From: Candidatus Omnitrophota bacterium
GTDB lineage: Bacteria; Omnitrophota; Gorgyraeia; Zapsychrales; JANLHA01
Direction: 5' to 3'
DNA: 64,000 nucleotides
Assembly: GCA_022711395.1 (NCBI GenBank)
Contig: JAKLFA010000002.1
Location: forward strand, 131,864 to 195,863
This document shows positions 1 to 37,916 of this stretch, piece after piece (the stretch's first letter is position 1; every line of letters starts with the position of its first letter). The notes under the pieces are model-generated. The model was given only the letters and a program-made list of their open reading frames with translations. It did not search any database and was not told where the DNA came from. The position numbers and the translations under genes were made by a program.

Positions 1-3000
1 ACACGAAGGATATTGTCCCGTGTAATTAAAGAATGATATTCAGGCCGAATGTTCTGTTGTATAAGTTCCTCCGCCTCTGTTTCGCTTAAAGTTGCCGCGT
101 TGGTGGCCTCACCCGCGGCAGGTTTTGTTTCTATCGATTCAAGGCTATCAAAAAGCTCATTAAAGAACACAACGCCCTCAGCGTAGAGCGCGAGCGCCCG
201 CTCTTCCTTCCCATCATTTTTTAAATGATAGATCGGCAAGTTTGCCATGATCTTGGCCAATGACGCAGACAAGCGCTGTTGCCAGTAGGGGTCGTTTTTC
301 GCAAATTCTGATGATCCAAAAAATTCTTCAGCCAGGGCCGGGAACCGGCGTTCCAACTCTTGATAGACTTGCCAGGCATGGCTGTCTTCTGGAAATTCCA
401 CCGTGATCGAAACGGTCCCATCAGGGTTTTCTTGCCGGGTGGTTTTTTCCAGATCATAGTTGAGCAGGTCATACTTACCGATGACTGTATGCGCGATCTT
501 TGCCAGATCATAGACCGGATCACCAACATAATCACCGCGCGGGTCCAGCAGAACGAATCCTCCGTCTTCTCTGAAAAACATGTTATCAAAATGAAAATCG
601 CCATGCGTCAATCTTAGGGCCGGCGGAGCTAATCGTTTGAGCAATTCCGGGTTCTGTTCCAGTTCGAGCAACAACGGAAGCACGTTTCTGTGGCGCTTTC
701 CATTGATGACGATATACTCAGCCTCAATAACGCTTTGAAAGACTTCGGGCGCTTGGCGCTTGACTTGTTCCAGCGATTCCCGGACCCGGTCGATCAGGAC
801 TTCTTTGAGATACATTTCAGGAACTGGCGCTGTGCGGGCACCCAGCATATGCTCGCGCCAGAATGACAAGACCTCTTTGAGCCGATTGATGATGAAATCT
901 GCGTTTTGCTGATCATAGATAATCGATTGTGTTAACGTCCGCCCTTCGTAGAACGGCATTTCATAATAGGGCTGTTGTTCGCCCTTGGTGTCGACCGATG
1001 TGCCCGGGATGTTTTGCGCGAGATTGAGAATGATCGAACGGACGTCTCCGTTGGCAAAATATGCCCGGACTGGAGATGCGTAAGCGGTTTTAGCCTGAAC
1101 GTCGGCTGCCTCGGCCGCCAAATCCTCGGGAGAGACATTGATGACGCCTTCGACTTCTAAATTTTCCGCTGTCGCTGCTGTTGCCTGTGTTTTTTTGATC
1201 CGCCGATTGATTTCTTCAGCAGGGACATCGGTAACTGCCACATACAATGCGGCATACTCGTTATTTTCCTGTTGGGACTGGTAATGAAAGATCCCCTCCT
1301 CATCGATATAATCATCGGCCTTTTGATCTTTGGACCCGATGCTTCGTAGTCCCTCCCCGACTTTTATAAGTTCATATTCTCCCGGGTTGAGTTTGACCTC
1401 CTGGGAGATTTCCTTGATCGCCACCAGATCTTCCTCCGCGGAGGCTCCGACATGACCGCCGAAGAAATCTTTTTGCCCGGGAGCGTTGACATCCGGCCGC
1501 TGGGCGCGTTTTTGGATCAGGATTTTTCCTGTCGATCTATTATAGATCACCACATGGACAACCCGGTGAGCGGTGCCGTTTTTGTGCGCTGATCCACGGG
1601 TCACAAAAAGGCCGGATGGACGGCCGGTTTTTGTGCTGACCGCATCAAGAAGCTCATTGTCTTTCTCCCCCTTGTAATGGACTTCCAGGTTGTGCCGGAC
1701 CACCCTGGAAAAGAATGGCCGCAATTGGGCCGGCAGCCCCAAGAGCCACTGGACTTGAGCGGTGAATTTCTTTTTATCACGGCCCCAGGAACCGGAAGGG
1801 GATTCTTTGCGGACCCGTCTTTGGCCGAAGTCCGTTTTGATCATCTTGAGATTGTTGGTTGAACCGCCTTTAAGTTTATTCGAGACAGATCTGACCGTTC
1901 GCCGAAGACCTTCGTCCACGCCGGACACAGAGAAAGAATTTTTCATATGCGCGTTGGCCGGCACGGTGATTTGGCTTGCTGAACGGCTGGCAAGAATTGG
2001 AACGGTTTTTTGAGATGAGGCCGTTTGGTCTTTAGATGCCTCTTCGATATAAATTTGCTGGATCCGCTGCGCGAATTCTTTTTTGGTAAGACCTTCAGCG
2101 CCGTTGATTTGGGATGTGCCGTAAGTTTCATTACTGATGACGGTCTTGACTGCTTCAGCCAGATCGTAAATAGACAACGGGTAACGGATCTGGGTGTCAT
2201 CGGCTTCGACCGGCTCTCCACGCTCGATTTTTTGAACAGTTTCTGTCACAAAATTGGAACGGTCATCGGGGGTGTTTCGCCCAAAAAGCATGCCGCTGCG
2301 GATAATGCTGTGCTGTTCAAATTGGCGCACGGCGTCTTCCCCGCGCTGTTTTGTCTGTCCATAAAAATTGATTGGGCTGGGAGAGTCTGATGCCTCATAG
2401 GGTGTTTCTTTTTTTCCGTCAAAGACATAATCAGATGACAGATAAACAAAATGCCCGTTAAAGTATTTTCGGAAGGCGTTGACCGCGCCGGCATTGAGAT
2501 ATTCAGCTGCCTGCGGATCTTTGTCCGCCTCTTGCGGGTCCGCTTCACCTGCGGCATAAACGATCACATCCGGCCGCGTTTCCGCAATGAACTTTTTGAT
2601 CTCATCTTCTTTGGTGACATCGAGTCTTTGAAAATCAGGCGTTTCCGCAGAAAAACTTGTCCCGATCACAGCGACGCTGTTCCCTTGCCGCAAAGCGGAA
2701 TAAATGCGCTGTCCGGCAAATCCGGACGCCCCTACCACGGCCACGGTTTTAAAAGGAGAAACGAAGATAGACTTGATCTGAGGAAATTTATTTTTGATCT
2801 TTTCGACATTTTCCGGGGTCGTTTCGAGCACAAAAATATCATCCGATTGGCTTTTCAGGATGTCCTGAATTCCTTTAAAGGACACGGCCTGGGGGACGCT
2901 TCCATAGGGAAGTATAATGACATCCCCTTCATCTCCATTTTTCAAACTGACTTCATCCGTGAAGTAATATTGAACTCCGTCAAATTCGCCATAAATCCGG

Positions 3001-5021
3001 ATTTTTCCCTTTTTCGTTCGGCCAATACGCTCTGCCAAACTTATGCGCTCATCCTGGCCATTCTGAATATTTTTAAGAGAGCGGTCGATCCTTCGTCCGT
3101 TTTCACCCAGGCTGTTGAGGTCTAAGATCTTATCAAGTGAAGCTCTGGCAGAGTCCGAAAGGCTGACGCCGTCTGATGCCAGGCGCTGCAGCAAACGGTC
3201 CTTAAAAGCGGAAACATTATCCACGTTGATGGCGGACAATACGTCCACCTCTTCTTTGAGGATCAGGGTGATCGCGCTCGCCAATGAGGGATCCATGGTG
3301 TCTAAGACAAGGTCTTCTTGAAATTCTGGATCTTCATCAGGCCGTCGCTCCCGCGTGTGATACATTAAGAATTTTTTAAATTTTTTTCCTTCCGGTGTTT
3401 TTTTGAGGGCTGACCAGATTGTGGACTTACCAACTCCGGAACCGCCTGAGTAAATAAAGAATTTATTTCCGGTCTCAGCCACATCTTTTTCCAGAATTTC
3501 TCTGAATTCTTTTGCCGCTTTGGCGACATTCTCTTGCTTTTGCTGCTCAGTGGGACCGAAAATATTAACTAATTGGTGATCATAGTCTTTTCTAAACTTC
3601 ATCCACCATTGAACGGATAATTCCATGCGTTCCAGCCACTTGTCTTGACGCATATCGATCGGTTCGCGTTGTCTCAATCGCTTCCAGTGCTCATCAATAA
3701 TTAACCGGATATCATGCTCATCGTATCCTTCTGAGACCATTTGGGCGACCAGGTTTTCGACAGATGCTAATTCCTGGGCCAACTTTTCCGCTGGATTTTC
3801 TTTGGGGGTTTCATCTTCCACTACAGACGCGTTGGTGGCGGCGCCGGTTTCCGGGCGGACTTCGAGGGCCAGTTTTAAATTTTTTCCCACAACAGAAGAA
3901 CGCACCTGCGCGGCGCTGGCGGTGGTTCCGATCTCAATGGCCGCGTCCTGAAACCCGCCGGAAAAATACTGTCTGGGGATCACGGTCTGGCTCAATTCAT
4001 CGTAATCTTCCTTAATATAGTTGAACACGCCCTGTTTGTAGGCGTCCATGTATTGCTCATAGATGCGCTCTTTCATTCCTTCATCATCGATCTCGATGCC
4101 CGCGGTCTTGTTGCGGTCGATATACACCTGCGACATCAGGCTGTTTTTCACGGTCTGTTTATACCATTTGGCGAGGATCAGCGAGTGATAGATCTGGCGC
4201 AATGGCGCGAAGTTTTTGCCCTGGTTGACCTCTTTTTCAATTTCAGGCAGGATCAGCTCGCGGATCATGTCTTTGCTGATCTGTGAAAGTTCGTCTGACT
4301 TTGAAACATCCGGCGCGCCCTGAATGCTGGTGCCGTCTGCCTCGCTCTGGCGGCTTTTTTGAAGCGCGATGTAATCCTCATCGAGCATGACCTTAAGATG
4401 CGTGTCCACGATATAGACGGTATTTTTGTGTTCATAAACGACCGCGGTCTCGGGAAGGATCCAGACCTTGTTAAACACATCCGTCGGGACGCTTTCAAGG
4501 CCGTAGCGTTCTTTGGCAGCTTTGTGGATGCGGTCCCAGAATTTCTTGCCCAGTTCGTTTTCAGGATAGACCAGGGTCGCGGTGAGCTGTTTTAAAATAT
4601 AATCCTGCGCCAACAGGTCGCGGCCCAGTTCGGTCTTGCCCAGTTCCTCAGGGATAATACGGTCTTTTTCGTAAGGAGACAAATTGACCCAAAGATCATT
4701 GTGAGGCACGGTCATGGAGGCTAAAAAATATTTGACCAACCGCTGGGATTCGGCCGTTATGTCTTGCTGATCATATTCGGCATTCCCGCTGTCGATAATA
4801 AAATCGAATTGCAGCGGATTGTCCGGATGAACGGTCATGCCTTTTAAGAGAACAGGCACAAAAGCCGGACTTACGCTGACCATGGCTCCCGGCAGCGGAA
4901 GGCCGATCGATTGCGCGTAACCTGGCGGCAGAATGGTTGTGGAAAGAAAGCTGAAAACAAGAACAGCGGACAGAAGTCTTACGGCAAAACCAAAACGGTT
5001 TTGTTGAATGGTGTGGAACAT
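1..5021 (-). CDS. Giant secreted multi-domain protein, at least 1673 aa; C-terminus lies beyond the window start. Domain order: signal peptide; novel N-terminal region of about 430 aa; P-loop NTPase or kinase-like domain; RmlD-like NAD(P)-dependent sugar-nucleotide reductase domain; degenerate Nudix domain; aminoglycoside-phosphotransferase or choline-kinase-like domain
   Basis: Codon-by-codon hand translation of the minus frame (plus-strand triplets starting at positions divisible by 3) found no stop codon from the ATG at 5019-5021 down to position 3. An in-frame TAG lies upstream at 5058-5060. An AGGGGG ribosome-binding site sits 5 nt before the ATG. N-terminus MFHTIQQNRFGFAVRLLSAVLVFSFLSTTILPPGYAQ|SIG is signal-peptide-like. 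Motifs seen: FFIYSGGSGVGKST (Walker A, about 3429-3470); KTVAVVGASGFAGQRIY (Rossmann fold, about 2715-2760) plus FVYLSSDYVFDGKKETPY...PINFYGQTKQRGE (RmlD-like, about 2350-2450); VVHVVIYNRSTGKILIQKRAQ...PGQKDFFGGHVGASAEEDLVAIKEISQEVKL (Nudix-like, about 1410-1570); LRLTHGDFHFDNMFF and LLDPRGDYVGDPVYDLAK (aminoglycoside-phosphotransferase-like, about 510-620). The gene is missing from the supplied ORF track, apparently because the track only lists ORFs that both start and stop inside the window. Confidence 0.8.
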   Translation of the reverse strand, partial: MFHTIQQNRFGFAVRLLSAVLVFSFLSTTILPPGYAQSIGLPLPGAMVSVSPAFVPVLLKGMTVHPDNPLQFDFIIDSGNAEYDQQDITAESQRLVKYFLASMTVPHNDLWVNLSPYEKDRIIPEELGKTELGRDLLAQDYILKQLTATLVYPENELGKKFWDRIHKAAKERYGLESVPTDVFNKVWILPETAVVYEHKNTVYIVDTHLKVMLDEDYIALQKSRQSEADGTSIQGAPDVSKSDELSQISKDMIRELILPEIEKEVNQGKNFAPLRQIYHSLILAKWYKQTVKNSLMSQVYIDRNKTAGIEIDDEGMKERIYEQYMDAYKQGVFNYIKEDYDELSQTVIPRQYFSGGFQDAAIEIGTTASAAQVRSSVVGKNLKLALEVRPETGAATNASVVEDETPKENPAEKLAQELASVENLVAQMVSEGYDEHDIRLIIDEHWKRLRQREPIDMRQDKWLERMELSVQWWMKFRKDYDHQLVNIFGPTEQQKQENVAKAAKEFREILEKDVAETGNKFFIYSGGSGVGKSTIWSALKKTPEGKKFKKFLMYHTRERRPDEDPEFQEDLVLDTMDPSLASAITLILKEEVDVLSAINVDNVSAFKDRLLQRLASDGVSLSDSARASLDKILDLNSLGENGRRIDRSLKNIQNGQDERISLAERIGRTKKGKIRIYGEFDGVQYYFTDEVSLKNGDEGDVIILPYGSVPQAVSFKGIQDILKSQSDDIFVLETTPENVEKIKNKFPQIKSIFVSPFKTVAVVGASGFAGQRIYSALRQGNSVAVIGTSFSAETPDFQRLDVTKEDEIKKFIAETRPDVIVYAAGEADPQEADKDPQAAEYLNAGAVNAFRKYFNGHFVYLSSDYVFDGKKETPYEASDSPSPINFYGQTKQRGEDAVRQFEQHSIIRSGMLFGRNTPDDRSNFVTETVQKIERGEPVEADDTQIRYPLSIYDLAEAVKTVISNETYGTSQINGAEGLTKKEFAQRIQQIYIEEASKDQTASSQKTVPILASRSASQITVPANAHMKNSFSVSGVDEGLRRTVRSVSNKLKGGSTNNLKMIKTDFGQRRVRKESPSGSWGRDKKKFTAQVQWLLGLPAQLRPFFSRVVRHNLEVHYKGEKDNELLDAVSTKTGRPSGLFVTRGSAHKNGTAHRVVHVVIYNRSTGKILIQKRAQRPDVNAPGQKDFFGGHVGASAEEDLVAIKEISQEVKLNPGEYELIKVGEGLRSIGSKDQKADDYIDEEGIFHYQSQQENNEYAALYVAVTDVPAEEINRRIKKTQATAATAENLEVEGVINVSPEDLAAEAADVQAKTAYASPVRAYFANGDVRSIILNLAQNIPGTSVDTKGEQQPYYEMPFYEGRTLTQSIIYDQQNADFIINRLKEVLSFWREHMLGARTAPVPEMYLKEVLIDRVRESLEQVKRQAPEVFQSVIEAEYIVINGKRHRNVLPLLLELEQNPELLKRLAPPALRLTHGDFHFDNMFFREDGGFVLLDPRGDYVGDPVYDLAKIAHTVIGKYDLLNYDLEKTTRQENPDGTVSITVEFPEDSHAWQVYQELERRFPALAEEFFGSSEFAKNDPYWQQRLSASLAKIMANLPIYHLKNDGKEERALALYAEGVVFFNELFDSLESIETKPAAGEATNAATLSETEAEELIQQNIRPEYHSLITRDNILR

Positions 5022-5120
5022 GGCAGCCCCCTGCGTTTTGATATGAAAAAGCGTTTTCTATGCAGAAAAAGCATAGCATATTTTTGATGAAAAAACAAAC
5101 ATGATTAAATTAAGGGAATT

Positions 5121-6626
5121 TTAAGGTGAAACAGGTTTTCGTTCAAAGATCTTTATGGCTGGAATCCGGGTAGAGCTGTTAAGGTCGAAAATTTCCTTTT
5201 TGAGTGAAAAACCGAGCCCCTTAAGAAAATCTTCGGTCTGCTGCTCCTTGCTAAAGGGAAGAAAATCCGTCCCATCTTGCTCACGAAAAGCATTCACTTC
5301 TAAAAGAATGCTTTTATCGGTTCCTTCGACAAGTTTTTTTAGGTCTGACTTCATCGCGGGGCATTCGTAAAGCCGCCCTCCATCCGCCAGATATTCCAGG
5401 CCGGTAAAATAACGGATGCTTCGGTGCTCCTGGGAGACAATAATATGGTCGCTGGTGATATTCTCGTTGATCCATGCCGTGGCGCTGGCGTAATCAAGCG
5501 AATTGGTTTTTAAGCCGGAGATCCTTGACGTAGAGGGGGTGTATTGTTCGATTAAAAAGGCAAAAAGAAAAAGTGCCATTAATTTGGCTATCATAAGCGG
5601 GCGTTCCTTTTGAAACACTCTCTTTAATAGGCCCTCTCCCCCCATCCCCGCCAGGATCAAGATCGCGGGTTGAAGATAGAACACATAGCGCGCGTCGGTC
5701 TGCGGCAACAGAAGGTCTCCGGCCAGGCCAATGGCGAAAAAACCGGACAGAGCCATCAAAAATTTGTTTTTCGTCCAGCATCCAAAGAGAATACCAAGGA
5801 TCATCAACAGGCCGATCTCTTTAAAGAAATAACAGTAGAGCCAGTAACCGGAAATCAATGTGTGACGGAGATGAAAAATAGGCTGTATTCCCAGGCAGCG
5901 AACAGCAGACGGGACCACCAATTTTAACATGGAAGCGCTGATCAGTCCGGGGAACAGCAAGAATTTTCTCAGCCCCAAGATGATGTTCGGACTATACAGC
6001 AAAAGATAGCTCAGAAGGACGAATGGGATCAGGATCATGGCGCTCCACTTGGTCAGCAAGGCCATCAACAGCGTGAGGCTGATCGCCAGGTGAAGCCTGT
6101 TGGTGCTTGTGGGTTTGAGGCGGCTGATCAGAAAGATCAGGATGATGCCCCAGAGCATGAAAAGCATGTCGTTGAGGATAAAAAATCTGAGCCACGAAAA
6201 TGTGTGAAAACCGGTCAGTCCGATGACACAAAAAAGGCCCAAGGCCGGTCCGCTTAGAGACGTCCCTAGGAAGTAAAGAGCGATGATGGTTATGATGCTG
6301 ATGGTCAAGGCGGTCAAGCGGTAAGCGATGATCGGCGGCAGTTCGTTGTTGAGCGTTTTTCCTGCGGCGAGCAAGACCGGAAACAGCGGTGGATGATGTT
6401 CGTTGACCTGGGCGGATGCTATATCGGAGAGGTTTTTCACTATTTTTTCCGCCTGCCAGGCGTAGACAGCCTCGTCACTCATGAGAAACGAGTGGAAATT
6501 CCTGTCTGAAAGAGAGTAAAAACTTAAAAGCTGGCCCCAGAGGATCGACAGGAAGATCATGCCGCAAATGGCTGATTCCCAATGTTTAAGATTTTTTAAT
6601 TGAGGCTGAAATTTCATAGAGGCCAC
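5121..6626 (-). CDS. GT-C fold membrane glycosyltransferase (PMT_2, GT39/GT83, ArnT-like); about 10 transmembrane helices and a soluble C-terminal domain of about 130 aa
   Basis: 501-aa ORF. The first periplasmic loop reads MSDEAVYAWQA...HHPPLFPVLLAAG, matching the DE...HPPL signature of ArnT/PMT-type transferases that use a polyprenyl-phosphate-sugar donor. Many hydrophobic helices follow. Confidence 0.55.
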   Translation of the reverse strand: MASMKFQPQLKNLKHWESAICGMIFLSILWGQLLSFYSLSDRNFHSFLMSDEAVYAWQAEKIVKNLSDIASAQVNEHHPPLFPVLLAAGKTLNNELPPIIAYRLTALTISIITIIALYFLGTSLSGPALGLFCVIGLTGFHTFSWLRFFILNDMLFMLWGIILIFLISRLKPTSTNRLHLAISLTLLMALLTKWSAMILIPFVLLSYLLLYSPNIILGLRKFLLFPGLISASMLKLVVPSAVRCLGIQPIFHLRHTLISGYWLYCYFFKEIGLLMILGILFGCWTKNKFLMALSGFFAIGLAGDLLLPQTDARYVFYLQPAILILAGMGGEGLLKRVFQKERPLMIAKLMALFLFAFLIEQYTPSTSRISGLKTNSLDYASATAWINENITSDHIIVSQEHRSIRYFTGLEYLADGGRLYECPAMKSDLKKLVEGTDKSILLEVNAFREQDGTDFLPFSKEQQTEDFLKGLGFSLKKEIFDLNSSTRIPAIKIFERKPVSP

Positions 6627-6703
6627 AGGGTTTTAATAGACTTATTGTAGTATTTTTGGGGATATTTGATAGGAGTTTTTTGGTTTTCGGGGCGCCGTTC
6701 AAT

Positions 6704-6734
6704 AAAAAACCCCTAATGAGAATCAGGGGTTTTT
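6704..6734 (-). terminator. Intrinsic terminator (bidirectional hairpin flanked by A- and T-tracts), downstream of the tRNA-Met gene
   Basis: AAAAAA then cccctaatgagaatcagggg then TTTTT. On the minus strand the stem is followed by a run of six T. Confidence 0.5.
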
Positions 6735-6799
6735 CTGTATATGTTGATCGGTTCCGGATGGCTGTTTCAAGAGCCGAACCATGAACCTCAAGATGGTCA

Positions 6800-6875
6800 T
6801 GGTAGCGGGAAGTGGGATCGAACCACCGACATAACGGGTATGAACCGTTTGCTCTACCAACTGAGCTATCCCGCC
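6800..6875 (-). tRNA. tRNA with anticodon CAU: elongator tRNA-Met, or tRNA-Ile2 if the C is lysidine-modified
   Basis: Hand-folded 76-nt cloverleaf: GGCGGGAUAGCUCAGUUGGUAGAGCAAACGGUUCAUACCCGUUAUGUCGGUGGUUCGAUCCCACUUCCCGCUACCA. Anticodon loop UUCAUAC. Encoded CCA end. The anticodon stem lacks the GGG/CCC run that marks initiator tRNAs. Confidence 0.8.
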
Positions 6876-32898: not shown

Positions 32899-33636
32899 TT
32901 AAGCGTTGATGGTGAGCTGGATCGCAGAAAGGACTGAAATGGCGGCGGTCTCCACCCGTAAAACAGTTTTTCCCAGTGAAATGGGAATCGCCCCTGCCTC
33001 CATGGCTGCTTGAACTTCTGCCGGTGTGAAATCTCCCTCCGGTCCGATCAAGACCAGGATCTTTGGTCTTAAAATGTTCAGGTTTAAACAGGCACTGATT
33101 GGCTGGCGGGGATCGACTAGGCACGGGATAAAAGCGGACGTCTCTGGATCGATCAGGGTTAGAACATCTCTAAACTCGGTTATCGGATGCAGCCGTGGCA
33201 TCCAAAGGCGGCGGCTTTGTTTGGCGGCGCTTAAAACAATGGATTGGAATCGCTGGTCCTTCTTTGCGGAGCGATCGGGCAACAGCTTGACCTCTGTGCG
33301 CTCGGTCTTTAAAGGGATGATCTCATCAGCTCCAAGTTCGGTGGCCTTTTCCAGGATCCATTCAAATTTGGTCTTTTTTGGTATGGCACAGGCCAGTGCG
33401 ATTGAGAACCGGTTGGTGTGTGGTTCTCGGCGGACGTCCAGGATGCGAGCTGAGACCATTTGGCTGGAGATCGAATCCAGCTCGCATTCAGCTTCTTCCC
33501 CTCTCCCGTTAAAAACGCAGAATCGGTCGCCTTTTTTTAAACGCATAACGTCTTTAAGGTGGTGGACTTCGTCCTTTTCATGGATGGCAATGTCATCTGT
33601 GGTGGCGAAAGAAATGTCGGCGTAGGAGCGGTGCAT
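32899..33636 (-). CDS. rsmE: 16S rRNA (uracil1498-N3)-methyltransferase
   Basis: RFCVFNGRGEEAECEL...LIGPEGDFTPAEV. The track ORF's N-terminal extension reads through the tRNA-Ala gene. Confidence 0.8.
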   Translation of the reverse strand: MHRSYADISFATTDDIAIHEKDEVHHLKDVMRLKKGDRFCVFNGRGEEAECELDSISSQMVSARILDVRREPHTNRFSIALACAIPKKTKFEWILEKATELGADEIIPLKTERTEVKLLPDRSAKKDQRFQSIVLSAAKQSRRLWMPRLHPITEFRDVLTLIDPETSAFIPCLVDPRQPISACLNLNILRPKILVLIGPEGDFTPAEVQAAMEAGAIPISLGKTVLRVETAAISVLSAIQLTINA

Positions 33637-33667
33637 ATATTCGGATGGTTTTTCTGAAGAATAAACA

Positions 33668-33743
33668 TGGTGGACCGAGGGGGAGTCGAACCCCCGGCCT
33701 CCTGATTGCGAACCAGGCGCTCTCCCAACTGAGCTATCGGCCC
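33668..33743 (-). tRNA. tRNA-Ala (anticodon CGC)
   Basis: GGGCCGAUAGCUCAGUUGGGAGAGCGCCUGGUUCGCAAUCAGGAGGCCGGGGGUUCGACUCCCCCUCGGUCCACCA. Has the G3:U70 alanine identity pair. Confidence 0.85.
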
Positions 33744-33835
33744 ACGTTTTAAAATACCTGAGCATCATAGCAAAAGCTCAGAGTTCTGACAAGATGGATT
33801 TTATAGAATGTCGTTTGAAGGGAAATTTTCAGTCT

Positions 33836-34456
33836 TCAGCGGGACACCTGGCTGAATGAAAATCCTGTTTGAACGGAAAAACGCGGATTTGTCAGGTCCG
33901 AATCCAGTTGCGATGGATCCGCGGCCCGGCTGAGCTCAACCGTTAAGGTGTTGAGAGGCTGCCCTCCTCCCGGAAATTCTTGCATGACAAAGTCGCATTG
34001 ATCGCAAATCATGGAAGCTGATTGCGGTTGCCAGGTTAGGGAGAAGACGCGTTCCGTGACCCCAGAGAGGGAACCGTGATAACAAATGATCTGTGCATCG
34101 AAAAGATCTTTGCCGCTGCCCAAAAGATCCCTAAAGCAAAAACCTGGGTCAGCGGAAATGCTTTCACTCCTGTCAATGATCACTCCGACAGGGTCGGTTT
34201 GGACGTTTGGAAAACTTCCAAATTGCGGGACTGTGATGATCCCCGATCCGCGCGCTTCCCATGCCATTTTTTTGATGCGCACCAGGGCCGCGCTCAACTG
34301 CGTGGTATTGCGCAGCCTGATCGAGGCCACATTTTGGGTCCTGCGGATCGCTGTATCGACCGAAACAATCCCCACGACGGCAACACCGATCAGCATGGAT
34401 GTGATCAGAAGTTCCGTGAGCGTCAAGGCTGATTTTGAAATTGCGGGATTTTTCAT
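33836..34456 (-). CDS. Minor pilin or pseudopilin (prepilin-type N-terminal domain)
   Basis: ALTLTELLITSMLIGVAVVGI is an N-terminal hydrophobic prepilin helix. Confidence 0.55.
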   Translation of the reverse strand: MKNPAISKSALTLTELLITSMLIGVAVVGIVSVDTAIRRTQNVASIRLRNTTQLSAALVRIKKMAWEARGSGIITVPQFGSFPNVQTDPVGVIIDRSESISADPGFCFRDLLGSGKDLFDAQIICYHGSLSGVTERVFSLTWQPQSASMICDQCDFVMQEFPGGGQPLNTLTVELSRAADPSQLDSDLTNPRFSVQTGFSFSQVSR

Positions 34457-34466
34457 GATCGGGTTT

Positions 34467-34925
34467 CTACCAGCTCACATTGACCGTGATCTCTTTGGCT
34501 CCTGTAAAATCGTTTGTCACGTTATAAACAACAAGAAAGGGCATATCATCCTTCACGATGGTTTTTGAGTAGCTTCCGCCGTTTACAAAGTTGCCCGCCG
34601 GGTCAACCCAGGCCTCTGTTGTGATCTGTCCCCTGAGGCTTTCAATGATATCCTGGGCGATGAACGCGGCTTGAACTTCTCGAGTGCTTTCGGCTGCCGG
34701 GCGGCTTAAGGCTGAAAGTGTTGCCAGGATGCCCGCTGTCGCCATGGCAAAGATCAGTGTCGCGACGATCACTTCGACCATTGAAAAACCGTTACGGCCT
34801 AGAAGTTGTCTGCTAATTGCAGACCGGCCCGTTGAAAACAGCTTGTTTTGGGCAGAGATGATGACCATTTCCCGCTCCTGTTGAAACACAGCTGACATCA
34901 GCTGAGTCCGATATGATTTTAACAT
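34467..34925 (-). CDS. Type IV pilin-like protein; start uncertain because the track ORF overlaps the upstream gene
   Basis: Prepilin cleavage motif RNGF|SMVEVIVATLIFAMATAGILA (G-F with Glu at +5). Confidence 0.55.
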   Translation of the reverse strand: MLKSYRTQLMSAVFQQEREMVIISAQNKLFSTGRSAISRQLLGRNGFSMVEVIVATLIFAMATAGILATLSALSRPAAESTREVQAAFIAQDIIESLRGQITTEAWVDPAGNFVNGGSYSKTIVKDDMPFLVVYNVTNDFTGAKEITVNVSW

Positions 34926-35319
34926 GAAATGTCAGGTTGAGTTCTGTGAATGTTTTGTCAGCGTAACAAGCGAACGTGGTCCCTCCCGGGGTGGCTGAGC
35001 AGATATAGGTCCAGCCGTTGTCAGGAAAACCCAATTCAAACTTTTGAAGGATCTGGGAAAAGCTCGACGAGCAAGCATTATCCGGTTCGTTCGGCCAAAA
35101 GTGGCCGGTGTTCATGTAAATGGTCTGCTGGGCGGCGAAGATCGCACGCATATTGGTCCTTGTCCGTTCGATATCCTGATCAATCACCAGCATGCGGAGT
35201 TTTGGCAGCGCAAGGGCCGCCAAGGTTGCAATGATGACCATGACGACCATGATCTCTACAAGGGTGAAGCCGTTCTTTTTTTGATGCTGTGTTGAGCGTG
35301 TAATTGGCATAAGGAGCAT
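34813..35319 (-). CDS. Type IV pilin or pseudopilin
   Basis: KKNGF|TLVEIMVVMVIIATLAALALP. Confidence 0.65.
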   Translation of the reverse strand: MLLMPITRSTQHQKKNGFTLVEIMVVMVIIATLAALALPKLRMLVIDQDIERTRTNMRAIFAAQQTIYMNTGHFWPNEPDNACSSSFSQILQKFELGFPDNGWTYICSATPGGTTFACYADKTFTELNLTFHVKIISDSADVSCVSTGAGNGHHLCPKQAVFNGPVCN

Positions 35320-35320
35320 T

Positions 35321-35761
35321 TTAGTTATATTTCATTTTTGCACAAAGGGTCGCATTATTCAAACAAATGATCCTGCCGTCAAAACCGATGGCCAGAGTAT
35401 AAAGCGTTGTCGATCCGCTCATCCGGTTGATGCGGATCGGCGCTGTTTCACCAGCAGAATAATAAGGGTAACTGAAATTCGGTGGTTTACGGCTGTTGTC
35501 AAAATCGATGGCTGTGAAATTCGAGGTCCAGAAGCTGCACGGGTAAGCGGAGCATGTTTTTCTGAAATTATCGACCGCATAACGTTGTTCAGATGCGTAG
35601 ATCGCAATTAAAAACTGTTCCCCCTCTTTTGCACGGAACCGTTCGATCACGGTGCCCATTTTCGGAAGTGCCGCTGCAGAAAGGATGCCAACGATCACAA
35701 CGACGACCATGATCTCGATCAATGTGAAAGCTGCCGAAAAGTTTTTGGTTGCGGACGACAT
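35321..35761 (-). CDS. Type IV pilin or pseudopilin
   Basis: SAAF|TLIEIMVVVVIVGILSAAALP. Confidence 0.65.
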   Translation of the reverse strand: MSSATKNFSAAFTLIEIMVVVVIVGILSAAALPKMGTVIERFRAKEGEQFLIAIYASEQRYAVDNFRKTCSAYPCSFWTSNFTAIDFDNSRKPPNFSYPYYSAGETAPIRINRMSGSTTLYTLAIGFDGRIICLNNATLCAKMKYN

Positions 35762-35805
35762 GGTTTTGGGTCACGTGATGGTTATGCGCATTTATGATTG
35801 TGTTG

Positions 35806-35840
35806 AAAAGCCGGCCCTCAAACAGCGAGGGCCGGCTTTT
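35806..35840 (-). terminator. Intrinsic terminator (10-bp GC-rich stem) immediately after the putative major pilin gene
   Basis: gccggccctc aaacagc gagggccggc, flanked by AAAA and TTTT. Confidence 0.6.
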
Positions 35841-35865
35841 CGTAATAGAAAACTTAAACGCCTCC

Positions 35866-36327
35866 TTACTTCAAGCCGGAAAAGGCTCCTATTCCGGTCC
35901 GTGTGACGTTCGTAGATGTTTGTGCGACGATAATCTGAGATCCGGTGCTCCCACCATCAAGCGTGTTGCGGTATGCCGTAATCGTGTATCCCACCGTTGA
36001 CGGAGAGGTGATCGAATAGGTGAAGTGCGCATTCGGCGACGAAGCAGGTGTTTCAATGTCCAGCTGGGTGAAACCGCCGTTGCCGCAGTTGACGTAAGTC
36101 CCATTATTCTGAAGGTAGCACCTTTCCATGGAAGAACGGATCGTCGCGATCGCGGATAACGCTTCCGCGCTTCTTGAGAATTCGACGGTTGAGAACAGAC
36201 GAGGTAAAGCTAAACTCGCCAAGACACCAACGATGATGATGACAATGATAATTTCAAGCAGTGTAAAACCGCTTTGGTTGCGTTTTAAACTCATTTTTTC
36301 GTCTCCTTTATGTATAACAGAATTCAC
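35866..36327 (-). CDS. pilA: Type IV major pilin (PilA-like)
   Basis: NQSGF|TLLEIIIVIIIVGVLASLALP. Followed by its own terminator. Confidence 0.7.
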   Translation of the reverse strand: MNSVIHKGDEKMSLKRNQSGFTLLEIIIVIIIVGVLASLALPRLFSTVEFSRSAEALSAIATIRSSMERCYLQNNGTYVNCGNGGFTQLDIETPASSPNAHFTYSITSPSTVGYTITAYRNTLDGGSTGSQIIVAQTSTNVTRTGIGAFSGLK

Positions 36328-36448: not shown

Positions 36449-36662
36449 TTAATTCGATGTTCGAATTATCGGCAGCTGGCTATCCCAAATGGTTTGGGAC
36501 CCTGTAGTTTTGTGCCCTACCCTCACGGATAGTTTACCTTGAACAATAATTCTCATATGTTCTTGCCTTAAGTATAGCTGATTCAAGCTTAAATATCAAT
36601 GTCTACAGACCTACCTATATAATAATAAATATATATAAATAAAAAAAGAATTTTCTTAAGAA

Positions 36663-37916
36663 TTAACCTCCTCCGCCTCCGCCCAACTGGGCAATGTTGA
36701 ACATCGGTAGAAACATCGCCAGGACAATGATGCCGATCACCGCTCCCATGAAGACAAGCATGAATGGCTCAATGACGGTTGCAAGGCGCTTCATGAACGT
36801 TTCGACCGTTTCCTGATAGAAATTGGCGACATGCTTCAGCATTTTGCTGAGTTCCCCGGTCTCTTCTCCCACGATGATCATTTGGATGGCCATGCCCGGG
36901 AAGAACTCGCTTCTCTCCATCGGGGCGGCCAGCAACTCGCCTCTGCGGACGCTTTCTTTGATATCGGAAATCACATTAGCGCAGGTCATGTTATCGACAA
37001 GCCGCTGGCTGATATCCAAGGCTTGAAGGATCGGAACGCCGCTGTCAACGAGGATCGCCATCTGGGACGTGAAGCGTTCCACGATGATGAGGCGGAAGAT
37101 GTTTCCGAATGTGGGCAGGCTTAATAGGAATTTCTCCTTTGCGAATCGGCCGGATGGGGTTTGGATGTAGCGTTTTATGAGAAAGACCGCCACAGCGATA
37201 GTGCCGATGATCAAAAGGAATTTCTCCTTGATAAATCGGAACGTGCCCAAAAGGATCTTGGTGATGAGTGGCAGGTCTACGCCCATAGTCGTGAAAATGC
37301 TTTCGAAACGCGGCCCAACGAAAAGTGCGAAAAATGAAACGGCTCCCATACAGATGAAGAACAGGATCACAGGATACATGATCGACGATATGATCGTTGA
37401 GCGGAAGTGCGCTTGTTGTTCCAGATAAAAGGATAATTTGTTCAAGACCTTAGGCAGGGTCCCTGCTGCTTCACCGACTTCAATGAGGCTGACCCAGAAT
37501 TGATTGAAGACCTTGGGATGATGGGCCATGGCCTCTGAAAGCGCGCTGCCGTGCTCAACATCACGGTTGACCTGTTCGATCACGCTGTAAAGTTTTTCGC
37601 TTTCGATCTGGCTGAGGATGACCTCCAGGCTTCTTAAAAGGGTCACGCCGGATTCAAGCATGGTGACAAGCTGGCGGGAAAAAGAGATCACATCATGGAG
37701 TTTGATCTTCTTATGGGTGAATTTTTTTTCCTTTGTTTTTTTAGGGGCTGCAGCGGCCGCCTCGATGCCCGGTTCGCTGGATACCGATTCAATCTTAAGA
37801 ACGAAGTATCCCTGCTTTTGAAGTTTCTCAATAAGGGATTCCCTGGAAAAGTCCTCAACGACGTTGGTAAGGGTTTTGCCATATGAGTCTTTAATGGTGT
37901 ATTTGAATTTTGGCAA
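36663..37916 (-). CDS. pilC: Type IV pilus or type II secretion platform protein (PilC/GspF family)
   Basis: 417 aa with two GspF-type repeats and inner-membrane helices. Confidence 0.8.
   Translation of the reverse strand: MPKFKYTIKDSYGKTLTNVVEDFSRESLIEKLQKQGYFVLKIESVSSEPGIEAAAAAPKKTKEKKFTHKKIKLHDVISFSRQLVTMLESGVTLLRSLEVILSQIESEKLYSVIEQVNRDVEHGSALSEAMAHHPKVFNQFWVSLIEVGEAAGTLPKVLNKLSFYLEQQAHFRSTIISSIMYPVILFFICMGAVSFFALFVGPRFESIFTTMGVDLPLITKILLGTFRFIKEKFLLIIGTIAVAVFLIKRYIQTPSGRFAKEKFLLSLPTFGNIFRLIIVERFTSQMAILVDSGVPILQALDISQRLVDNMTCANVISDIKESVRRGELLAAPMERSEFFPGMAIQMIIVGEETGELSKMLKHVANFYQETVETFMKRLATVIEPFMLVFMGAVIGIIVLAMFLPMFNIAQLGGGGGG

Follow-up and report, generated by a model that had tools for sequence, protein, structure and literature searches.

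A PMT_2/ArnT-Like GT-C Glycosyltransferase Gene beside the Gene of a Large, Predicted Exported Protein in a Candidatus Omnitrophota Genome, and the Conservation of the Pair in Relatives

Introduction

Two genes lie side by side on the minus strand of a 64,000-nt stretch of Candidatus Omnitrophota DNA (GenBank assembly GCA_022711395.1, contig JAKLFA010000002.1, positions 131,864 to 195,863), here called the window. One encodes a polytopic membrane protein of about 500 amino acids (aa), and the other encodes a multi-domain protein of 2849 aa with a signal-peptide-like N-terminus. The locus raises the question of whether the first gene encodes a glycosyltransferase of the GT-C superfamily, and whether the two genes work together. 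A sequence-only reading had answered yes to the first and had proposed for the second an operon for protein O-glycosylation or cell-surface glycan modification, with the large protein as substrate or partner enzyme. In this study, the family, fold, conserved residues and genomic context of the membrane protein were investigated. The explanation preferred here, and considered likely, is a real GT-C enzyme, next to whose gene the large gene stands as an incidental, species-specific neighbor in a variable slot.

Identification and Predicted Topology of the GT-C Protein

The GT-C gene was located at 5121–6617 (minus strand), with its stop codon at 5121–5123. The encoded protein of 498 aa was 100% identical to P0001, a publicly available gene call in a metagenome-assembled genome (MAG) of Candidatus Omnitrophota, and the full-length open reading frame (ORF) was identical across five independent assemblies. 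An alternative GTG start at 6626 (minus) gives an ORF of 501 aa (5121–6626), the length that had been reported for the polytopic protein; the ATG at 6617 is the likely start.

Hydropathy analysis and an AlphaFold2 (AF2) model gave about 11 hydrophobic transmembrane (TM) helices, in keeping with a polytopic protein and within the 8–13 helices typical of the GT-C superfamily, and then a soluble C-terminal domain of about 140 aa. The N-terminus was short and Lys-rich, with three Lys ahead of TM1. The first loop comprised residues 34–93 and included 'MSDEAVYAWQAEK' and 'NEHHPPLF'. The DE...HPPL signature that had been described for this loop was found at that place as D48-E49 and H74-H75-P76-P77-L78. 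In the predicted topology, the N-terminus would be cytoplasmic, the loop with the catalytic D48-E49 pair would face the periplasm, and a small α/β domain would come after the last helix.

Family Assignment and Conserved Residues

The GT-C protein scored 20.4 bits (E 6.6e-4) against Pfam PMT_2 (PF13231), which is under the gathering cut-off of 26.1, and no NCBIfam model matched it, the ArnT equivalog included. Therefore, family membership was tested independently. Homologues at 38–42% identity spanned the full length. Among 1.84 billion cluster representatives, searched exhaustively with HMMER, 390 relatives reached E ≤ 1e-3, of which 158 reached E ≤ 1e-10; most of the relatives were about 500 aa long. 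When the family alignment was used in a word-index search for homologues, the matches were for the most part distant PMT_2 proteins. Relatives carry the NCBI label 'glycosyltransferase family 39 protein', and precomputed PF13231 matches were present on two of them (P0002 and P0003). Family conservation and the family profile were based on an alignment of 82 sequences. PMT_2 was matched by 79 of these (E ≤ 0.01, best 4e-16), PMT by 23 and Glyco_transf_22 by 15. Since 79 of the 82 relatives matched PMT_2, although the score of the protein itself was below the cut-off, it was regarded as a divergent member of the PMT_2 clan.

In the same alignment, D48 and R310 were invariant, and E49, Y52, W54, P76, P77, D150 and K190 were at least 90% conserved. 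Loss of the catalytic Asp/Glu pair was not seen when the family was aligned to ArnT. The D48-E49 codons, the predicted catalytic pair in the first periplasmic loop, were at 6471–6476 and aligned to ArnT 'PDE'. The codons of the HPPL signature (H74-H75-P76-P77-L78, at the entry of TM2) were at 6384–6398 and aligned to 'EKPPF'. The codon of the nearly invariant D150 was at 6168–6170 and aligned to the Asp of 'LDMTL', and the R310-Y311 codons were at 5685–5690, with Y311 aligned to the Tyr of 'PGY' (all minus strand). The ArnT counterparts, which we take to be D55/E56, D158, E84/K85 and Y345, assume that the deposited chain is offset by three residues; Y345 is a lipid-phosphate contact. The counterpart of the ArnT residue that we take to be R270 was not resolved in the hidden Markov model (HMM) alignment, and the invariant R310 adjoins Y311. 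HPPL, D150, K190 and R310-Y311 would line the predicted lipid-phosphate donor site.

A search of PDB sequences with a 3-sequence profile gave nothing meaningful, and the 82-sequence profile was needed. With this profile, ArnT of Cupriavidus metallidurans (5EZM) was matched across 333 profile positions (TM1 to about TM11) with E 1.3e-11, and yeast Pmt1 (6P25) across 150 positions with E 1.9e-10; PglB and STT3 gave E values of about 1e-5. The AF2 model, built from a 24-sequence alignment, had a mean predicted local distance difference test score (pLDDT) of 76.6 and a predicted template modelling score of 0.80. All 14 Foldseek matches in the PDB at E ≤ 1e-3 were GT-C enzymes (ALG12, STT3, ArnT, PglB and AglB), with query-normalised TM-scores of 0.5–0.58; ALG3, ALG9, Pmt4, AftB and Emb were matched more weakly than E 1e-3. 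The GT-C call, drawn from the family profile, the conserved residues and the predicted fold, is solid, and the protein very probably belongs to the GT-C superfamily as a PMT_2/ArnT-like member.

Comparison with ArnT and PMT

ArnT (GT83; PDB 5EZM/5F15) was the best sequence-profile match and shares the GT-C fold and clan with the window protein. The first-loop DE and the later Asp and Tyr positions of ArnT were conserved as D48/E49, D150 and Y311. As modelled, both proteins have a PP motif after the first loop and a C-terminal periplasmic domain. The window protein differs from ArnT in being about 50 to 80 aa shorter, with a small and poorly modelled C-terminal domain. It also has H74-H75 where ArnT has EK, so that His75 stands at the position that we take to be K85. 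There were no arnA-D or arnEF genes in the 64-kb window or in the 10 kb downstream of it, and nothing indicated lipid A as the acceptor.

The PMT proteins (GT39; yeast Pmt1-Pmt2, PDB 6P25, and bacterial PMT_2 proteins) have the loop-1 DE and the PMT_2/PMT profile matches in common with the window protein. The window protein has 498 aa, whereas PMT proteins have more than 700 aa, and neither MIR nor PMT_4TMC was found by Pfam in it or its family. As arn genes were not found nearby, the ArnT equivalog did not match, and both MIR and PMT_4TMC were lacking, the protein is neither ArnT nor PMT in the strict sense. The enzyme type given in the sequence-only reading, a PMT_2/ArnT-type GT-C transferase, was supported.

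By analogy with ArnT, PMT and STT3, the protein would be a functional inner-membrane enzyme that moves a sugar from a polyprenyl-phosphate donor onto an acceptor at the outer membrane face. The same donor and an outer-face active site had been proposed before; the type of enzyme agreed with the profile, the residues and the Foldseek matches, whereas the donor and the topology are predictions from these likenesses. No GT2 polyprenyl-phosphate sugar synthase (ArnC/GtrB/Ppm1-like) turned up in the scanned window ORFs of 200 aa or more, in the 10-kb downstream flank or in the 2849-aa protein. No GtrA/ArnEF-like flippase was found in the same scan, in which small ORFs of less than 200 aa were only partly covered and could hide one. 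There was no other glycan gene among the window ORFs scanned. These two partners, expected beside the GT-C gene in a three-component periplasmic glycosylation system, may be encoded elsewhere in the genome. The acceptor is weakly suggested to be an envelope lipid or glycan rather than a protein.

Conservation of the Gene Pair in Related Genomes

The large protein starts with a conserved N-terminal domain, here called the N-domain. The co-occurrence of N-domain proteins and GT-C genes was investigated by HMM scans over 24 loci, with 13 independent GT-C loci. A related-locus search with a 12-sequence alignment gave five loci each from genome and metagenome collections, which is a modest sample. 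An N-domain protein was near the GT-C gene at only two of the 13 independent GT-C loci, namely the window and locus L017.

The flanking housekeeping proteins of L001 (GCA_038222225.1) were 64–93% identical to those of the window and were in the same order up to tRNA-Met. After tRNA-Met, L001 had a GT-C gene (38% identity), then a convergent gene for a 608-aa membrane protein and a gene for a membrane protein with tetratricopeptide repeats; no large N-domain protein came after this syntenic GT-C gene. The closest N-domain homologues in the same genome (79% identity, two in tandem) were on another contig (L009), where methyltransferase and T2SSE genes preceded the pair and no GT-C gene was found in the 6.4 kb upstream. 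Synteny was also kept in L010 (GCA_040753435.1), where BacA and a CitMHS transporter preceded tRNA-Met. This locus had an N-domain protein (66% identity) 1.5 kb past tRNA-Met, and no GT-C gene was present there. In L003, a GT-C homologue of 42% identity was followed by a DAHP synthase gene. In L021, the contig ended within the GT-C gene.

The distant GT-C loci L012–L020 (23–33% identity) typically had two or three tandem GT-C paralogues. The GT-C triplet of L017 was also present in L012, where the 10-kb flanks that were read contained no N-domain protein. Three further N-domain loci had no GT-C neighbor. The co-occurrence of the two genes was thus not borne out in relatives: the pair was split between L001 and L009 and was absent in L003 and L010.

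In the GT-C family, the recurrent neighbor of a GT-C gene was another GT-C gene. Tandem arrays of two or three paralogues were found at L012:8354-12811 and L017:8344-12806, and also in L014, L016, L018 and L020. The triplets of L012 and L017 were orthologous, with about 40% identity.

The syntenic GT-C genes of the window (5121–6617, minus) and L001 (L001:10001-11527) were only 38% identical at the protein level despite flanks of 64–93% identity. Either the divergence was very fast, or an allele was replaced at this surface-related locus. The four closest GT-C family members were 37–44% identical among themselves, so fast divergence and non-orthologous replacement are indistinguishable here.

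The slot after tRNA-Met differed in content among the three related genomes. Its conserved left edge was tRNA-Met (CAT), located in the window at 6800–6875 (minus), with a terminator at 6700–6735, and in the relatives at L001:9633-9708 and L010:8419-8493. The slot held the GT-C gene, the large protein gene and a GDSL lipase gene in the window; a GT-C gene and two membrane protein genes in L001; and small ORFs and an N-domain protein gene in L010. The arrangement in the window looks like the union of what the two relatives carry after tRNA-Met, and the slot may be prone to integration or rearrangement. The idea of an island at tRNA-Met was weighed against base composition, and the G+C content of the locus (0.475–0.478) showed only a slight drop from about 0.50–0.53.

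Spacer and Transcription Context

The spacer between the two genes was 99 nt long (5022–5120, minus), with the next ATG at 5021, and both genes were on the minus strand, in agreement with the earlier description of co-directional genes about 100 bp apart. The hairpin in the spacer (CTATGC-N7-GCATAG, 5076–5058, minus) was weak, as had been noted: its stem was 6 bp long, and no U-run followed on the coding strand. The fold of the spacer had a z-score of −0.36, which was no better than shuffled sequence. There was no intrinsic terminator on the coding strand of the spacer. A promoter-like match at 5146–5118 (minus) was at chance level. When the surroundings of the genes were scanned for promoters and terminators, the counts were at shuffle level, so that no conclusion on promoters was drawn.

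The terminator after tRNA-Met (6700–6735, minus) was strong, with a free energy of −24.6 kcal/mol, a z-score of −4.55, and none of 200 shuffles as stable. It indicates that the GT-C gene opens a new transcription unit. In this arrangement, the GT-C gene would start the unit, and read-through into the large gene may happen.

All ORFs of at least 200 aa outside larger ORFs in the 64-kb window were on the minus strand. The plus-strand ORFs overlapped larger minus-strand ORFs with clear Pfam matches. As no real ORF in the window is on the plus strand, the co-directionality of the two genes is uninformative. The rest of the window contained housekeeping genes (Gat-CAB, TsaD, CtpB, Mfd, SecDF, AlaRS, RecA and UvrA), genes of the Trp, His, Lys and Arg pathways, and a cluster for a type II secretion system and type IV pilus.

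The 2849-aa Protein and the N-Domain Family

The first 1673 codons of the large gene were at 1–5021 (minus), and the gene continued past the window edge. Its full length of 2849 aa was read from the source contig (516 kb). The protein has a signal-peptide-like N-terminus (aa 1–36; 5021–4914, minus), the N-domain (aa 37 to about 400; 4913–3822, minus), which had no Pfam match, a guanylate-kinase-like P-loop around aa 520–564, an RmlD-like domain (aa 760–1028; 2744–1938, minus), a weak NUDIX-like match (aa 1152–1234), and an APH-like (kinase-like) Pfam match (aa 1447–1510; 683–492, minus). The RmlD-like domain matched RmlD_sub_bind/Epimerase at E 1.8e-42 (RmlD_sub_bind) and retained GxxGxxG and YxxxK. 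After the enzymatic domains came many HEAT_PBS repeats, a strong TM helix (aa 2259–2284), more HEAT repeats and a C-terminal tail. A GDSL-lipase-like gene was downstream of the large gene. The predicted cleavage site residues A36 and Q37 were at least 90% conserved among N-domain proteins. Because of the signal peptide with this conserved cleavage-like site, much of the large protein may face the periplasm.

Long 'multi-enzyme' proteins of Omnitrophota are described with signal peptides, TM helices and HEAT scaffolding (10.1101/2023.11.21.568195; 10.64898/2026.06.07.730766). The 2849-aa protein fits this type: it has a signal peptide, a TM helix and HEAT scaffolding, and its enzymatic domains are of sugar-metabolism, kinase and NUDIX kinds. 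The proteins surveyed there have at least 10,000 aa, and the 2849-aa protein is far shorter (West-Roberts et al. 2023, 10.1101/2023.11.21.568195; 10.64898/2026.06.07.730766). The term 'giant' used for it in the sequence-only reading fits a large protein and not the standards of the phylum. Secretion or pilus genes and glycoside hydrolases are reported for the flanks of the 14 largest giants (at least 80,000 aa), and a GT-C/PMT-type transferase is not mentioned in the passages searched (10.1101/2023.11.21.568195; 10.64898/2026.06.07.730766).

The N-domain/variable-cargo/C-tail family is a more unusual object at this locus than the GT-C protein. The N-domain stretch (window 3822–5021, minus; L004:11597-12796) had more than 1050 homologues, the top 120 at 46–79% identity, and the named ones were nearly all from Omnitrophota. 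The cargo after the N-domain was diverse and included ankyrin, NUDIX, PGI, PGM, Response_reg and ADK/PRK/TreT. N-domain proteins also shared a tail of about 100 aa at the C-terminus ('GGIDMN...GFTPVIIDITPI...'), which was located at L004:19826-20143 (aa 2744–2849 of the large protein), L010:11471-11755, L009:8911-9996 and L017:7605-7826. One family member of 585 aa had little beyond the N-domain and the tail. The shared N-domain and tail, together with this minimal member, point to a family with fixed ends and swappable cargo. The AF2 model of the N-domain (pLDDT 76.5) had no significant PDB neighbor by Foldseek (best E 0.4, TM-score about 0.1), and the weak matches to NheA/MakA were not taken as meaningful. 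The N-domain appears to be a conserved module for export or anchoring.

Many N-domain ORFs of 500–650 aa were followed by a large co-directional ORF 6–260 nt downstream. Such pairs were found at L009:6469-9999, L022:921-5959, L023:10001-13416 and the P0240 locus, with second ORFs of 659, 1070, 501 and 1165 aa. The second ORF of L009 matched the HEAT and tail part of the 2849-aa protein. These pairs could stem from split or interrupted genes or from assembly errors, or they could be genuine two-gene versions.

Explanations for the Adjacency

Several points weigh against the preferred explanation of a real GT-C enzyme with an incidental neighbor. The Pfam PMT_2 score of the protein itself was below the cut-off. 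Only three close GT-C relatives (37–42% identity) were present in the databases, one of them cut by a contig end within the gene, so the co-occurrence sample is small. L017 was the only one of the distant GT-C loci L012–L020 with an N-domain protein within 10 kb, and there a 2604-aa N-domain protein was 380 nt upstream of three tandem PMT_2 GT-C genes. Co-transcription of the GT-C gene and the large gene in the source species is also possible, since the spacer contains no terminator. This 99-nt spacer, the second adjacency in L017, the signal peptide with the conserved A-Q site, and the RmlD-like domain with both motifs are consistent with a dedicated operon, in which the GT-C enzyme O-glycosylates the exported large protein on its way out of the Sec channel, or the sugar-nucleotide domains of the latter feed the GT-C donor pathway. 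However, the closest relative had the two genes apart, and others lacked the pair. Compared with the window, L017 had the opposite gene order and a different cargo (Response_reg), and the orthologous triplet of L012 had no N-domain protein in the flanks read. Co-directionality carries no information here, and a lipid-linked donor is needed, yet neither a GT2 synthase nor a flippase was found in the window scan or in the large protein. A single genome also encoded more than one N-domain protein: L009 had a tandem pair, and the MAG of P0001 had a second one, P0277. A chance adjacency is therefore plausible. Since the adjacency was not conserved in related genomes, a dedicated two-gene module was not supported and is considered improbable, and the operon with the large protein as substrate or partner, as first suggested, was not retained. 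The adjacency of the GT-C and 2849-aa genes is better described as a species-specific juxtaposition than as a conserved functional pair.

Protein acceptors are conceivable in other ways. The enzyme might be a general PMT-like periplasmic protein O-glycosyltransferase with many Sec-exported targets, perhaps including the large protein, for which the adjacency would likewise be incidental. The DE motif, the Pmt1 match (E 1.9e-10) and the Pfam PMT matches in 23 of the 82 relatives agree with this, as does the position of the gene alone among housekeeping genes, where a general modifier might be expected. It is nevertheless unlikely, as MIR and PMT_4TMC were lacking, the alignment to ArnT was longer than that to Pmt1 (333 vs 150 profile positions), and the large protein had no markedly Ser/Thr/Pro-rich linker, its richest 30-aa stretch past the signal-peptide region reaching an S+T+P fraction of only 0.37. 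The exported N-domain, found in more than 1000 Omnitrophota proteins, might itself be the acceptor of this GT-C subfamily, glycosylated on exit from Sec, with the two adjacencies as remnants; this is a very doubtful proposal. If true, it would mean a lineage-specific O-glycosylation system for the long multi-enzyme proteins of the phylum. A degenerate or non-catalytic relic kept as a membrane protein would account for the sub-cut-off Pfam score and for an identity of only 38% with the syntenic GT-C protein of the close relative L001. The family-conserved D48, E49, D150, K190 and R310 were intact, and the ORF was full-length and identical in five independent assemblies, and a relic is hardly credible.

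Under the preferred explanation of a real GT-C enzyme with an incidental neighbor, the annotation of 'hypothetical protein' in the Omnitrophota MAG can be corrected to a putative GT-C, PMT_2/ArnT-like glycosyltransferase with intact catalytic residues. The adjacency in the source genome is not readable as an operon without comparative support, because the genes of the region are all on the minus strand and relatives differ in what follows tRNA-Met. A link to the large protein, if true, would be a first handle on how the long surface proteins of Omnitrophota are modified; the evidence points the other way.

Other Features of the Window

A c-di-GMP-I riboswitch (RF01051) was found at 36468–36548 (minus) with 57.7 bits, compared with a gathering score of 35. 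It was located between a T2SSF gene (36663–37916) and five type IV pilin/pseudopilin-like genes (33836–36327). Four of the five pilin-like genes after the riboswitch encoded GF(T/S)L/MxEI-type N-termini. The arrangement suggests that c-di-GMP controls pilin expression.

The ORF of an RsmE-like RNA methyltransferase (32899–33768, minus) began inside tRNA-Ala (CGC) at 33668–33743 (minus). Since the listed start was inside the tRNA gene, the true start of the RsmE-like gene is placed downstream of tRNA-Ala.

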